DNA of 64,000 bases from Promethearchaeota archaeon. Its GTDB lineage: Archaea; Asgardarchaeota; Lokiarchaeia; Sigyniarchaeales; SOKP01. Below the pieces are notes generated by a model. The model did no database searches and was not told where the DNA came from. It saw only the letters and a list, made by a program, of their open reading frames with translations. The stretch lies in contig JAHPZA010000009.1 of NCBI GenBank assembly GCA_019058445.1, positions 352,001-416,000 on the forward strand, given 5' to 3'. The position numbers were made by a program, and so were the translations under genes. This document shows positions 40,107 to 63,674 of this stretch, one piece after another. The first letter of the stretch is position 1; the number at the start of each line of letters is the position of its first letter.

Positions 40107-41342
40107 ATGCGTGAATTGAAAATGTCAGATATTAGTCAAATTAAAGGCATTAATGCTCGACAGATAAAATTATTACAAGAAAATGGAGTAAGTACTGCTG
40201 AAGCGTTAGCAATGTCTCCTATTAATGTGGTTTCAGATATTGACGGATTAGGGGAAAAATCAGCGAAAAAACTCATATGGAATGCTAGAAATGCTTTGGG
40301 GATGACTGATTTTACGAAAGCTTCAGAGATCGATGAAAATACTGAATATTTTACTACAGGCTCATCGGAACTCAATAAAATATTAGGTGGTGGATTTCAA
40401 ACGGGGAAATTAACGGAAGTCTATGGCCCATTTAAATCGGGAAAAACGAATTTGGCACATACAATCTCGGTTACTGTTCAATTACCCAAAGAGAGAGGTG
40501 GTATTGAAGGCTCTGCTGCATATATAGATACCGAAAATACATTTTCTAAGGAAAAGATTAAAAGGATTGCGAAGAGATTTGGACTTAACCAAGACGATGT
40601 ACTTTCTAAGATATATCACGCGAGGATTTATAGTTCTGACCATCAATCTCAAATGATTATGAAAGCTGAGACTCTCTGTAAAACAAGAAATGTACGATTA
40701 ATTGTGTTAGATAGTTTGATGGCCCTTTTACGGAATGAATATGTCGGGATAGGATCACTTGCAAAAAGGCAGGGGGTGCTAAATAATATGATTCACGGTT
40801 TATCAAGGGTCGCAGAAACTTATAATTGTGCGGTATTGCTTACAAATCAAGTCGCTACAAAAATGGTGGGAATGTTTGCAGCCGATGACGCCATAGGAGG
40901 AAATATAGTAGCCCATGGCTGTCATTTTAGAGTAATGTTTAAAACCAAAGGATTTTCTTCAAATAATTCTTTAAAAAGAAGGGCAGTTATCGTTGATGCT
41001 CCTGATTTGCCACCAGAGGAATGTGAATTCTATATTACAAATGCAGGAATTGCTGATACAGATAAAGTTGATATTAGCCCCCAAGAAGTTTCAGAATTTG
41101 AATTTGAAATAGAAAAACTTTATGAGGAAAATGATGAGAACACACCTTTTACCGATATTCCATTAACAAATGTCAAAGGAATAGGGAAGGGAACAGCCGA
41201 AAACTTGATTGCAAATGGGATATCTTCAATAGAAGATTTAATATCTGTAGATCCAAATGAACTTTCAGCAAAAATAAGTGGCATCTCTTCAAATATGGTG
41301 CTTGAGTGGCAAAAATCGGCAAAAATCTTAATAAAATCTTAA
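40107..41342 (+). CDS. radA: RadA/Rad51-family recombinase paralog with an extra C-terminal HhH domain
   Basis: N-terminal HhH, Walker A GPFKSGKT, YIDTENTF, LIVLDS and TNQV; C-terminal VKGIGKGTAENL. Confidence 0.85.
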   Translation: MRELKMSDISQIKGINARQIKLLQENGVSTAEALAMSPINVVSDIDGLGEKSAKKLIWNARNALGMTDFTKASEIDENTEYFTTGSSELNKILGGGFQTGKLTEVYGPFKSGKTNLAHTISVTVQLPKERGGIEGSAAYIDTENTFSKEKIKRIAKRFGLNQDDVLSKIYHARIYSSDHQSQMIMKAETLCKTRNVRLIVLDSLMALLRNEYVGIGSLAKRQGVLNNMIHGLSRVAETYNCAVLLTNQVATKMVGMFAADDAIGGNIVAHGCHFRVMFKTKGFSSNNSLKRRAVIVDAPDLPPEECEFYITNAGIADTDKVDISPQEVSEFEFEIEKLYEENDENTPFTDIPLTNVKGIGKGTAENLIANGISSIEDLISVDPNELSAKISGISSNMVLEWQKSAKILIKS

Positions 41343-42377: not shown

Positions 42378-43028
42378 ATGATTAACTCTAAACAGACCAA
42401 TAAAAGTAGAATTAACGTCAGTAACACTTTGAGCTTTAATGACTGTGATGGAATAATCCAGTTTAAAATTGTGTATTGGGGCCCCGGAGAATCTGGTAAA
42501 ACAACTAACTTTATGAGATTAAAAGAAAAATTTCACTTTATGAAATTATCTAGTAGTTTTTCAATCGAAACCACTGAAGGAAGAACATTATGGCAAGATT
42601 CAGTGTTTTTCTCGTTCAAATTCAATATCAATGAGAAAAAATATATTATTATCACGCAAATAGTAACATGTACCGGACAAGAGAGATTTCTTTCCACACG
42701 GGAATACGTTCTTGAGGGTGCAGATGGGATCATATATGTTGGAGATTCCAACCCCGACATGATTGAGCAGAATAAGCGTAGCTTTCGAGAGCTGATAAAT
42801 TTTACCAAAAATAAAGACATTCTATATGTCGTCCAATTAAATAAAAGAGATTTAGAAAATGCCATTTCTATGTTAGATTTTAAGAAGCAATTGGGTTTAC
42901 CAAGAGAGGATAAATATCCTGATGGTAGCTATGTAGTATATCCTGTAATCGCATTAGAAGGAATAAATGTGGTTAACTGCTTTCAAAATCTGATACTTCA
43001 AGTTGTTATTGAATATTTCAAATTGTAA
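42378..43028 (+). CDS. MglA-like small GTPase
   Basis: KIVYWGPGESGKTTN, GRTL, TGQ, GADG and QLNKRD motifs. Confidence 0.88.
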   Translation: MINSKQTNKSRINVSNTLSFNDCDGIIQFKIVYWGPGESGKTTNFMRLKEKFHFMKLSSSFSIETTEGRTLWQDSVFFSFKFNINEKKYIIITQIVTCTGQERFLSTREYVLEGADGIIYVGDSNPDMIEQNKRSFRELINFTKNKDILYVVQLNKRDLENAISMLDFKKQLGLPREDKYPDGSYVVYPVIALEGINVVNCFQNLILQVVIEYFKL

Positions 43029-60793: not shown

Positions 60794-61021
60794 TTAAATA
60801 CTTTCTTTTGAATATTTTTCAATTATATAATTCTGAAGTGAAAACGCATATTTTTCAAGGTTTAGAATTAAAATTTTTTGTTGAACTTCCCTAAGATACG
60901 ATACATCTAAGGATTCAAATAAATTTTTTAAATTGTCGATTGAATTAAAAACCTCTACTATTATCTTCCAATCTTTTGCCCATTCTACATCATGATGCTC
61001 TTTACGTCCTATTTCCTCTAT
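60794..61021 (-). CDS. Hypothetical protein (75 aa) with probable ATA start (not in track)
   Basis: SD GAGGT, then ATA-GAG-GAA...: (M)EEIGRKEHHDVEWAKDWKIIVEVFNSIDNLKNLFESLDVSYLREVQQKILILNLEKYAFSLQNYIIEKYSKESI; no ATG/GTG/TTG in frame. Confidence 0.6.
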   Translation of the reverse strand: MEEIGRKEHHDVEWAKDWKIIVEVFNSIDNLKNLFESLDVSYLREVQQKILILNLEKYAFSLQNYIIEKYSKESI

Positions 61022-61183
61022 TTTTAAAACCTCTTTTTTAAAATTGATATTTTAAAATGATATATATTCTCTGATTTATCCCATAGTAACTTACCTTAAA
61101 AAATGTTTAGATAGTGAAGAATAAGTGATAATATAAAGCAACTAAGTTATTAAAACAAAAAAAAGAATAAAAAAAATACTAAT

Positions 61184-61768
61184 TTAATTTTGTATATGTA
61201 TAACAGTGGTATTTGATGCATTCTCCATGATTCGTAGTTTCTTCTTTTGATCCCCAGAATTCACGATTATGCCAATTATAAAATCAATAAGGAGTAAACC
61301 AGGATTGGCTTTAAAGAGATTATTTAGTAAATAATCTCCAGTAGCAGCTACCTCTAAAGAGTCTTGATTTACAGTCCTTATTTTCATAGCCATTTTACCA
61401 ACAGTTTGGCCGTTATTGCTAGTTTCTAAAATCCAGAAATAGAGAAGAGCTATCGCATAACCAATTATAAATGCTACAGCCACGTGTACTGTAGCAAATA
61501 AAATTCCATAAGCTATCCCAACTATAACAGCATCAATTATGAATGCAATAAATCTTTCACCAAAATCAGCATATTTTACACCTGCGGGGGCAGGTTTTGA
61601 TTTCTTTTCTTTTTCTGCTACTTGCTGTTTAGGGAGTGCCAGTTCAGTTTTTGGAGGTTCAGCTTCAGCTTCGGGTACCCTCTCTCTCAAATCCGCACCA
61701 CATGAGCTACAAAATTGAGTGTCAGTATCTAATTCAGAACCACAAGCAGGACAATATTTAACAACCAT
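61184..61768 (-). CDS. Zinc-ribbon plus RDD family membrane protein
   Basis: CPACG...FCSSCG, RFIAFIID and GQTVGKMAMKIR motifs. Confidence 0.85.
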   Translation of the reverse strand: MVVKYCPACGSELDTDTQFCSSCGADLRERVPEAEAEPPKTELALPKQQVAEKEKKSKPAPAGVKYADFGERFIAFIIDAVIVGIAYGILFATVHVAVAFIIGYAIALLYFWILETSNNGQTVGKMAMKIRTVNQDSLEVAATGDYLLNNLFKANPGLLLIDFIIGIIVNSGDQKKKLRIMENASNTTVIHIQN

Positions 61769-61877
61769 TACTTAAACCTTTCAATTATTTTTTTTAAATT
61801 TATATTATGACGATAATTATATAATATCTTTTTTATAGTTAAATTTTTTATAGTCCAATTCCTATTCTATTATAATT

Positions 61878-61946
61878 ATGAAAATTATGAAAATAATTCC
61901 TATTGGTATTATCATTACTAGTATTATTATTGGAATTATTATATAA
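61878..61946 (+). CDS. Putative Ile-rich leader peptide of cimA (22 aa)
   Basis: MKIMKIIPIGIIITSIIIGIII*, 13 of 22 codons Ile; about 25 nt downstream of TATA-like TTTTATAG and 117 nt upstream of cimA. Confidence 0.75.
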   Translation: MKIMKIIPIGIIITSIIIGIII

Positions 61947-62063
61947 TTTCATAAAAGAAATGGAATTTTAAACTCTTCTTACCTTTTCTTTTATCTTTTC
62001 TAGGGGTTTAAGATTTCATCTTTGATAATATAAAATGATAAAAATCTGAAAGGAGGAAAAGCA
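61947..62063 (+). promoter_or_regulatory. Putative attenuator structure in the cimA leader
   Basis: Stem of about 18 bp with G-U pairs (61960-61977/62002-62019) enclosing a U/C tract that is also complementary to the SD region GGAGGAAAAG. Confidence 0.55.
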
Positions 62064-63674
62064 ATGGCAAAAAATAATAAATTATACATATATGATGCAA
62101 CCCTTAGAGAAGGAGCTCAGAAAACAGGAATAAGTTACTCAATCGAAGATAAGATTCGTATAATAGAGAGATTAATTAATGATTTACATATTCCTATGAT
62201 TGAGGTTGGCTGGCCAGGATCAAATCCCAAGGATATAGCGCTCTACAAAAAGATTCCAACTCTCGATACTAACTCTAATGGTACCAAGATATATGCTTTT
62301 GGAGCTACTAGACGTAAAAATATCCAGGCACAAGACGATCCAAATCTTAGAGCCTTGCTTGCTGTTGGAATAAAAAGGGCTACAATAGTTGGAAAGAGTT
62401 GGGATTTGCATGTTGAAACAGCTTTAGAAACGAATTTGGAAGAAAATCTTAATATGATTGAAGATACTATCATGTACTTAAATAAAAATGGAATTGAGGT
62501 GGTATATGATGCGGAGCACTTTTTTGATGGATATAAAAGCAATAGGCAATATGCCCTCGAAACAATATCATGTGCTTCCAATGCTGGTGCGTCATGGATA
62601 GTATTATGTGATACAAATGGTGGCCTTTTACCGCATGAACTCGGTCCTATTTTTGAAGACGTAAAAGATTATTTAGGTAATGATATTCCTTTAGGAATTC
62701 ATGCTCACAATGACTCTGGAGTAGCGAATGCCATTGCTTTGGAAGCCTATCAACATGGCGCCAGCATGATCCAAGGAACAATGAATGGATTTGGTGAGAG
62801 ATGCGGAAATACAGACTTAACAACAATTCTTCCCGTTTTAAAATTAAAAATGGGGGTAAATTGTATTTCTGATGAAGCTTTAAAAAATCTTACCGAAGTT
62901 TCCCACTATATTTATGAAATGGCCAATTTGCCTGGCAAAGATGATCAACCTTTTGTTGGAAGATATGCTTTTTCTCATAAAGGAGGTATTCATGTTTCAG
63001 CAATGAGAAAGGATGTCAGAACATATGAGCATGTAAATCCAGAGTTAGTTGGAAATTCTCGAAATATAAAAGTTTCAGAGTTGGCCGGAAAAAGTTCGAT
63101 ACTTCATATGGCCAATAAATTTGACATTCCTCTTTCTGAGACAAATCCAAAAGTTTCGGCAATACTTCAAGAAATAAAGAATAAAGAAAATCAAGGTTAT
63201 TCTTTTGAGGGTGCTGAAGGTTCATTAGAAATTATAATGAGAAGTATGGATATGAACATTCAAGATCCCAATTATTACAGAAACAAATTCTTTCAATTAG
63301 AAGGTTTTCGAGTTCTTACAGAAATGTATAAGGAGGATTTAATATCTGAAGCTACTATTAAAGTGAGAGTAGGAAATGAAATGTTTCATACAGCTGCTGA
63401 TGGAAATGGCCCAGTAAATGCCCTTGATAACGCACTGAAAAAAGCCTTGGTCTATTTTTATCCAAGTATTAAGGAAATTGATTTATCCGATTTTAAAGTA
63501 AGAATAATAAACCAGGAAGGAACAGCATCGAAAGTTAGGGTATTAGCTGAGACTCACGATGATGAGGGGAGTTGGGGAACAATTGGAGCTCATGAAAATA
63601 TTATAGTAGCGTCTTGGGATGCTTTAGTGGATTCATATATATTTAAATTGCTTAAAGATAAATCAAATTGGTAA
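62064..63674 (+). CDS. cimA: Citramalate synthase
   Basis: YDATLREGAQ, GWPGSNPKD, DAEHFFDGYK, HAHND, GFGERCGN, HKGGIH and GNGPVNALD motifs (bacterial-type CimA clade of the LeuA family). Confidence 0.88.
   Translation: MAKNNKLYIYDATLREGAQKTGISYSIEDKIRIIERLINDLHIPMIEVGWPGSNPKDIALYKKIPTLDTNSNGTKIYAFGATRRKNIQAQDDPNLRALLAVGIKRATIVGKSWDLHVETALETNLEENLNMIEDTIMYLNKNGIEVVYDAEHFFDGYKSNRQYALETISCASNAGASWIVLCDTNGGLLPHELGPIFEDVKDYLGNDIPLGIHAHNDSGVANAIALEAYQHGASMIQGTMNGFGERCGNTDLTTILPVLKLKMGVNCISDEALKNLTEVSHYIYEMANLPGKDDQPFVGRYAFSHKGGIHVSAMRKDVRTYEHVNPELVGNSRNIKVSELAGKSSILHMANKFDIPLSETNPKVSAILQEIKNKENQGYSFEGAEGSLEIIMRSMDMNIQDPNYYRNKFFQLEGFRVLTEMYKEDLISEATIKVRVGNEMFHTAADGNGPVNALDNALKKALVYFYPSIKEIDLSDFKVRIINQEGTASKVRVLAETHDDEGSWGTIGAHENIIVASWDALVDSYIFKLLKDKSNW

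Follow-up and report, generated by a model that had tools for sequence, protein, structure and literature searches.

An isoleucine-rich leader peptide upstream of citramalate synthase in Asgard archaea as a candidate for ribosome-mediated attenuation

Attenuation by a leader peptide is a textbook mechanism of bacteria, and one that needs translation to run alongside transcription. Can an archaeal ribosome regulate an amino acid pathway in a comparable way? The question is raised by a locus in a window of 64,000 nucleotides (nt) from a Promethearchaeota archaeon of the Asgard lineage (assembly GCA_019058445.1, contig JAHPZA010000009.1, positions 352,001 to 416,000; coordinates below are those of the window unless stated otherwise), where a very short upstream open reading frame (uORF) dominated by isoleucine (Ile) codons precedes cimA, the gene for citramalate synthase. 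An earlier reading of this DNA from its letters alone, here called the sequence-only reading, had proposed that ribosomes stalling on the Ile codons control cimA, and at the comparative level our analysis supports that view. We suggest that the cimA leader peptide is probably a cis-acting Ile sensor which is read by the ribosome, with stalling on Ile codons raising the expression of cimA; from sequence comparison we infer that the uORF is translated, that ribosomes stall on it, in which direction cimA responds and that termination is involved.

The uORF, MKIMKIIPIGIIITSIIIGIII, can be read directly from the sequence on the plus strand (61878-61946), from an ATG at 61878 to a TAA stop codon at 61944-61946. 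Thirteen of its 22 codons specify Ile (10 ATT, 1 ATC and 2 ATA), including three triplets of consecutive Ile, and the stop codon is separated by 117 nt from the ATG of cimA at 62064. The 536-residue product of cimA (62064-63674, plus strand) is a citramalate synthase by its match to TIGR00977, with a score of 671.9 bits compared to a cut-off of 450 and coverage of residues 6-534. All of these points, namely the coordinates and sequence of the uORF, the Ile count with its three triplets, the 117-nt gap and the identity of cimA, had been given in the sequence-only reading and are confirmed here. Directly before cimA lies an A-rich spacer (62024-62063) that contains the Shine-Dalgarno sequence GGAGG (62052-62056). 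The gene appears to be monocistronic at this locus; the genes downstream of it are unrelated or on the opposite strand.

The uORF is extreme in its composition. Among the 27,317 ATG-initiated frames of 15-40 codons in the 4.6-Mb genome it has the highest Ile fraction (59%), and the only other frame with at least 55% Ile is the reverse strand of this same uORF; when intergenic frames are instead scanned for enrichment in any single amino acid, it ranks fifth among 19,499. The concern that Ile-rich short frames might simply be common in this genome, which the sequence-only reading had raised against itself, is thus answered by the uORF being the genomic extreme. The intergenic region that holds the leader has a G+C content of only 18.6%, compared to 31% for the whole genome, so that a worry about low complexity is real for this single sequence; it is removed by the conservation of the uORF across 58 leaders.

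These 58 distinct cimA leaders all come from Promethearchaeota, 23 of them from genome loci and 35 from metagenome contigs. CimA orthologues could be located in 26 of 41 related genomes, in addition to public genome contigs, and an Ile-rich frame precedes cimA in every one of the 23 loci of the same GTDB family that have enough upstream DNA, ending 103-133 nt before the gene. The metagenome leaders were found with a search pattern made of leader DNA only, consisting of the Gly-Ile-Ile block, the TTCA that follows the stop codon and one arm of the helix that we call P1 below. This pattern matched 48 contigs, 13 of which are chance matches without a peptide; of the 35 that encode the peptide, 27 continue into CimA at a distance of 97-120 nt, eight are cut by the end of the contig and none leads into another gene. 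The leader is linked exclusively to cimA. The comparison of orthologues that the sequence-only reading had suggested as a check thus returned an Ile-rich uORF in each of the 23 family loci as well as on the 35 metagenome contigs.

The leader peptides have a median length of 21 codons and a median Ile content of 52%, and in 57 of the 58 they comprise 16-24 codons between an ATG and an in-frame stop; the single stop-less variant reads through 57 codons. Their C-terminus follows a fixed pattern, I-I-I-G-I-I with zero to two further Ile residues and then the stop codon, which falls 0-3 codons past the G-I-I block in all leaders except the one from locus L010. In L040 the stop is shifted by two codons. 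The distance from the CC of a conserved Pro codon to the GG of the conserved Gly codon takes six different values between 21 and 36 nt, every one a multiple of three. The Gly codon itself varies between GGA (28 leaders) and GGG (30 leaders), while the two Ile codons that follow it are ATT in all 58. Ile makes up 79% of the hydrophobic residues in the 58 leaders, compared to 27% in the proteome; judged by this composition, Ile is specifically selected among the hydrophobic residues of the leader peptides.

Outside this family the picture is more varied. TIGR00977-type CimA is found in only 16 of 251 sampled genomes of the phylum. No Ile frame precedes the 45%-identical cimA of a distant Asgard family (approximately 50% G+C) in four genomes, and none was seen before cimA in families with G+C-rich upstream regions. 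In a second family of the same order (loci L024, L025 and L026), cimA lies directly downstream of leuA, and the space between the two genes holds a different and longer frame with an Ile-rich end (for example ...GLGLIIIIISIILNLIIC); downstream of this frame lies a stem whose interior is U-rich. As a sensor, the frame would be located internally and not next to the promoter. Within the genome studied here, a search that allowed mismatches gave no recognizable second copy of the post-stop motif, the P1 arm or the block from GII to the stop codon among dozens to hundreds of matches, a number that makes the search uninformative in a genome of 31% G+C. A separate observation concerns L050, a 4.9-kb public contig labelled Halanaerobiales, whose CimA fragment is 72% identical to the archaeal protein; this contig, which has probably been binned wrongly and is of Asgard origin, was not used.

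The strongest argument that the codons themselves are being read is that the homologous synthases cimA and leuA each carry a leader rich in codons for their own end product. The gene leuA, a paralogue of cimA, encodes 2-isopropylmalate synthase (NF002085, 581.8 bits compared to a cut-off of 517). Upstream of it, a frame ending in ...SSLVLLLSLLDLLLLLLL (LLDLLLLLLL) stops 93 nt before the gene; its coordinates are C4:58346-58459 on the plus strand, corresponding to L089 1216-1329, with leuA at L089 1423-3036. Only one other intergenic frame of the genome has six or more consecutive Leu residues. The ATG of the leuA leader is preceded by a TATA-like box whose end lies about 26 nt away, and a Leu-rich leader is present before leuA in 20 of 27 loci from relatives. 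A third leader, the Trp-rich frame MATVNNWAWRWQWPWRWR (C6:1236705-1236761, minus strand; L052 6706-6762), lies about 165 nt upstream of trpB2 (L052 5141-6541, minus strand), the gene for a TrpB-like enzyme (NF009057, 638 bits), and ranks second in the genome-wide scan for single amino acids. A frame with a W-x-W C-terminus precedes trpB2 in most of 30 relatives from four GTDB families. In these trpB2 leaders the uORF lies inside a long hairpin with a U run directly 3' of it, and the outer helix of the hairpin changes in sequence from lineage to lineage but stays paired; the covarying hairpin together with its U run lends independent support to the hairpin model that we develop below for cimA. 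The match between codon identity and pathway product, which the sequence-only reading had taken as the key signal, is thus strengthened by the Leu leader at leuA and the Trp leader at trpB2 in the same genome and its relatives. No Ile-rich frame precedes ileS in this genome.

Where does the transcript begin? A candidate archaeal promoter of the leader and cimA (61840-61853, plus strand) combines A-rich sequence with the TATA-like octamer TTTTATAG (61846-61853) downstream of it; such an arrangement is seen both in this sequence and in leaders aligned on their ATG. The octamer is separated from the uORF ATG by 24 nt, in agreement with the distance of about 25 nt reported by the sequence-only reading. 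In the 35 metagenome leaders aligned on their ATG, positions -40 to -34 are A-rich, positions -33 to -26 are T-rich or TTTAAA-like, and position -28 is A in all; the best TATA-like octamer mostly ends 23-26 nt upstream of this codon. Since the centre of an archaeal TATA box lies approximately 26-27 nt before the start site, the spacing would place the start of the leader-cimA transcript 0-4 nt before the uORF ATG. This would imply a near-leaderless mRNA with a predicted 5' untranslated region of about 0-4 nt, and no Shine-Dalgarno sequence could be read before the uORF. A start site of cimA downstream of the uORF, which would have spoken against the sequence-only reading, is not what the promoter signal points to, since it places the start at the uORF ATG or up to about 4 nt before it. 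Matches to sigma-70 promoters at the leader, returned by a scan for bacterial promoters, are irrelevant for an archaeon.

The RNA downstream of this start is highly structured. Helices were derived from RNAalifold on 23 leaders, from folds of single sequences and from pair tables on 56-58 leaders; the pair tables were scripted on motif-anchored positions because MAFFT misaligned the Gly block. In this genome the leader (61875-62026) folds at -35.9 kcal/mol, with z = -4.92 and none of 200 shuffles as good. Two hairpins stand side by side: they are adjacent and compatible, and do not overlap in the folds. The first encloses the uORF. Its base, helix P0, pairs UAUGAAA (61877-61883), which holds the start codon, with UUUCAUA (61947-61953) directly past the stop codon, as seen in the minimum-energy fold and the pair table. 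The AUG:CAU pairing of P0 is present in all 58 leaders, while the pair at position -1 is U-A in 28, A-U in 6, C-G in 3 and a U-U mismatch in 17. The TTCA past the stop codon is invariant in the 23 aligned genome leaders without any coding reason; in the 35 metagenome leaders it formed part of the search pattern.

Further inside the same hairpin, helix H1 joins AAUAAUUCC (61892-61900), spanning Ile-Ile-Pro codons, to GGAAUUAUU (61932-61940), which spans the Gly-Ile-Ile codons just before the stop; the 5' arm comes from RNAalifold on the 23 leaders, and the 3' arm is found by RNAalifold, the pair table and the fold. The nine base pairs of H1 are 71-100% canonical in the 58 leaders, eight of them at 95-100%, with one compensatory C-G change. 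The CCN codon of Pro and the GGR codon of Gly are the only conserved codons containing G or C because they pair with each other in H1. The second hairpin, P1, consists of a 5' arm at 61954-61977 with the core GAAAUUUUAAAC (found by RNAalifold, the fold and the pair table) and a 3' arm, GGGGUUUAAGAUUUCAUCUUUG, at 62002-62023 (fold and pair table). In P1 GAAAUUUUAAAC pairs with GUUUAAAAUUUC; over 56 leaders the pairs of the 13-bp core are canonical in 91-100% of cases, and compensatory changes from A-U to C-G occur in L013, L014 and L040. The 5' arm carries a 5-nt insertion, AUGGA, in this genome and its closest relatives.

The loop of P1 (61978-62001) is rich in pyrimidines, contains three T4 runs and is a candidate signal for premature termination. 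In the comparison of 56 leaders, the median loop measures 33 nt and pyrimidines account for 79% of the loop sequence; 54 of the 56 contain a run of at least four T, and 38 a run of at least five. The first 10 nt past an AAAC sequence contain a median of six T, which places the U tract approximately 24-32 nt past the uORF stop codon. Its start at about 24 nt corresponds to what we take, as an estimate, to be the downstream reach of a ribosome plus the RNA held by the polymerase. Archaeal termination relies on oligo-U and on aCPSF1/FttA, not on a hairpin, and in the cimA leader the conserved oligo-U tract sits in the loop of an AU-rich helix. Across this genome, runs of at least six T within 60 nt are found past 34% of gene ends, compared to 15% before gene starts and 8% inside genes, an enrichment that fits oligo-U as a terminator signal.

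From these elements we suggest the following course of events. Transcription would start at, or a few bases before, the AUG of the uORF, and a ribosome would load on the near-leaderless 5' end and translate about 16-24 codons, of which half specify Ile. The final Ile codons directly precede the stop; with scarce charged tRNA-Ile the ribosome would dwell on them, keep P0 and H1 open and cover the RNA just past the stop codon. With plentiful Ile, the ribosome would finish and leave, and the hairpin of the uORF would close. The closed hairpin and the exposed RNA may then promote termination at the U tract, either intrinsically or via aCPSF1/FttA, while a stalled ribosome would prevent termination and let the RNA polymerase continue into cimA. 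The evidence supports charged tRNA-Ile as the quantity that would be sensed. We put forward premature termination at the U tract as the output only tentatively. It is likewise possible, in our estimate somewhat short of an even chance, that the near-leaderless Ile/cimA, Leu/leuA and Trp/trpB2 leaders form an Asgard lineage set that couples the dwelling of a ribosome to termination at oligo-U, possibly through aCPSF1/FttA, with no antiterminator involved.

How does such a leader compare with known systems? The enterobacterial attenuators (ilvL/ilvGMEDA, ivbL/ilvBN, thrL, leuL, trpL, hisL and pheL) share with it a small upstream frame in which codons for the end product abound, regulatory codons close to the stop, a structured RNA with a U-rich tract before the first gene, and separate leaders for separate pathways in one genome. 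Unlike them, the cimA leader belongs to an archaeal host with a promoter made of a TATA box and a B recognition element (BRE) and has a near-leaderless start; it has neither a 2:3 antiterminator nor a G+C-rich terminator hairpin, and it matches no Rfam family. In a search of the interval 61000-63000 at E <= 10, the Rfam families, including Trp_leader, Leu_leader, Thr_leader and His_leader, gave only unrelated matches at chance level.

In the E. coli pyrBI/pyrE and tna (TnaC) systems, a ribosome that is positioned behind the polymerase or at the end of the leader blocks a terminator hairpin or a termination factor, and an antiterminator helix is not required. The logic that we favour for cimA is the same. 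What these systems sense is UTP or free tryptophan, not codon starvation, and their termination depends on bacterial Rho or on intrinsic terminators.

The ilv leaders of M. tuberculosis (ilvB1NC; PMC13236596) and Corynebacterium (ilvBNC; PMC11857589, PMC10272879) share with the cimA leader a uORF rich in branched-chain codons within the long leader of a branched-chain biosynthesis gene, and in M. tuberculosis the uORF attenuator is backed by the mapping of transcript ends, ribosome footprints and reporter assays (PMC13236596). Premature termination at a U tract occurs in these ilv leaders (PMC13236596, PMC11857589, PMC10272879), whereas for the cimA leader we only infer it. The ilv leaders contain a terminator/antiterminator pair, a Rho-independent terminator and mixed codons for Leu, Val and Ile, while the cimA leader is almost purely Ile, would control cimA and folds into two adjacent, non-overlapping hairpins. 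Leaderless frames rich in a single amino acid are also known from the polycysteine small open reading frames (sORFs) of mycobacteria (bioRxiv 10.1101/834739), where several such frames per genome make up a ribosome-directed regulon. Taken together, the comparisons support the view that the cimA leader would be an archaeal form of a leader-peptide regulator that has neither a terminator/antiterminator pair nor a Rho-independent terminator.

Several observations weigh against this interpretation. No Rho-independent or bacterial-type terminator, that is, a G+C-rich stem followed by a U run, was found before cimA in a terminator scan, and the folds contain no mutually exclusive terminator and antiterminator pairings. 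A classical 2:3 antiterminator, formed between the end of the uORF and the 5' arm of P1, was considered and rejected: it would have only six AU-rich pairs, and the alignment indicates that it is broken without compensation in the half of the leaders that read TAAATTC. The U tract in this genome amounts to only three T4 runs, where close relatives have T5 or T6. The model we favour gives helix P1 no role; P1 could be the terminator-like hairpin itself, or could protect transcripts that have been read through. Because the sequences of the helices hardly vary, they offer little covariation, and the conservation of H1 could serve the peptide and not the pairing. Insertions and deletions of three bases could also come from slippage in ATT repeats. 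In L010 (genome G012) the uORF has lost its stop codon, with CAA in place of TAA; as an observation on this variant, the resulting frame extends to 5 nt before cimA. All source organisms are known as metagenome-assembled genomes only.

The metabolic context also speaks against a simple account. The canonical route from 2-oxobutyrate to Ile needs ketol-acid reductoisomerase (IlvC). It was not found: in this genome the best candidate, a D-2-hydroxyacid dehydrogenase, matches TIGR00465 with no more than 21.9 bits, and KARI_C has no match. Among the 10 genomes of the genus, this one included, none matches TIGR00465 at E <= 1e-20, and two of them are 98-99% complete. The genome further encodes a threonine ammonia-lyase, so cimA may not be the sole source of 2-oxobutyrate. 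Several IlvD-family dehydratases and LeuC-like proteins are present as well, and there are acetolactate-synthase-like enzymes, none of which reaches the curated cut-off. The genus thus seems to have an incomplete canonical pathway to Ile and Val, yet the 10 genomes keep cimA, leuA and their leaders despite the fact that IlvC was not found.

Among alternative explanations, the one that survives best keeps the Ile sensor and changes its output: a stalled ribosome would alter the translation of cimA or the stability of its mRNA, rather than termination. This could take place by refolding around the ribosome-binding site, or because the 5' end and the U-rich loop are exposed to, or protected from, ribonucleases such as aCPSF1 and aRNase J. 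That cimA has a strong Shine-Dalgarno sequence of its own, GGAGG, would suit such an output, as would P0, which buries the 5' end, and P1, which is conserved yet has no part in the termination model. The polycysteine sORFs of mycobacteria, the nearest leaderless analogue in bacteria, do act on translation: there, a stalled ribosome blocks a duplex that hides a downstream ribosome-binding site (bioRxiv 10.1101/834739). At cimA, by contrast, RNAduplex predicts no stronger pairing of the uORF with the ribosome-binding site than with shuffled sites (52 leaders, mean z = 0.07), and in 15 folded leaders no conserved pairing involves the site, which is surrounded by A-rich sequence. For these two reasons translational control of cimA by the leader is not favoured. 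We regard the altered output as a whole, stability included, as rather unlikely. A long-range UUCCU:GGAGG pairing, which appears in the full-length fold of the leader from this genome, was set aside, as it is not conserved in relatives with GGTGA as Shine-Dalgarno sequence.

It could also be argued that the uORF encodes a functional small hydrophobic peptide of the membrane, which is merely co-transcribed with cimA and involves no sensing of Ile. The peptides do resemble many single-pass micro-proteins, with a basic N-terminus (MKK, MKR or MRLR), a hydrophobic stretch, and conserved Pro and Gly residues. A membrane helix, however, tolerates Leu, Val and Phe, and would not account for a share of Ile among the hydrophobic residues that is 27% in the proteome but 79% in the leaders; no more than approximately 14-18 residues make up the hydrophobic stretch, and the conserved Pro and Gly codons are mutually complementary in H1. 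Neither the exclusive linkage to cimA nor the Leu-rich frame at the same position before leuA would be expected of such a peptide, and the frame before trpB2, being rich in Trp and Arg, cannot be a membrane helix. We therefore consider this explanation very improbable.

We hold an untranslated structured RNA, similar to a riboswitch or bound by a protein, to be just as improbable. Here the frame would be a by-product of AU-rich ATT repeats, whose slippage yields insertions and deletions of 3 nt without any translation. The strength of the folding (z = -4.92) and the blocks of nucleotides that are conserved beyond any coding need, such as the TTCAT past the stop codon and the arms of P1, are what one would expect from it. 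It does not explain why 57 of the 58 leaders, despite their changes in length, keep an ATG at the promoter-defined 5' end and a stop codon 0-3 codons past G-I-I, with L010 as the exception, or why the identities Ile, Leu and Trp match cimA, leuA and trpB2. The second GTDB family, with its unrelated sequence, again has an Ile-rich frame, and no Rfam family matches the leader. Finally, a chance open frame in intergenic DNA of 18.6% G+C, suggested by the fact that the reverse strand of the uORF is also Ile-rich and the sequence hence of low complexity, has practically no probability left, since the uORF is the extreme of its genome for Ile and its retention in 58 leaders at a fixed distance from cimA already refutes chance.

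If the leader peptides of cimA, leuA and trpB2 do couple the dwelling of ribosomes to premature termination as outlined above, they would constitute ribosome-mediated attenuation for the first time in Archaea, and would do so in the prokaryotes most closely related to eukaryotes. The sequence-only reading had remarked that attenuation of this kind is not experimentally established in archaea, and this holds as far as our search reaches: we found no published report of leader-peptide attenuation in archaea in the full-text literature, a search that most subscription journals lie outside of. The system makes testable the idea that archaeal ribosomes regulate RNA polymerase or the fate of an mRNA in cis, in a setting with no terminators of the bacterial type. 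It also flags cimA as an Ile-controlled gene in organisms with a seemingly incomplete canonical Ile pathway, which is a metabolic puzzle, and it gives annotation a further class of functional genes, so small that gene callers overlook them.

A few further features of the region and the genome deserve mention. Upstream of the cimA leader lies a divergent gene for an RDD/zinc-ribbon protein (61184-61768, minus strand). In the divergent intergenic region between them, TTTTTTATAGT is tandemly duplicated (61828-61856), and one of the copies may serve the minus-strand gene. The window also encodes an Arf-family small GTPase (42378-43028, plus strand) and a RadA/Rad51 recombinase (40107-41342, plus strand), both of which are consistent with an Asgard archaeal origin of the contig. 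Elsewhere in the genome, a small frame with three CKCGGDCIS repeats (C6:449501-449638, plus strand; locus L055) is located directly upstream of a radical SAM/SPASM gene (L055 427-1686), and its sequence resembles that of a precursor from which a ribosomally synthesized and modified peptide would be made.

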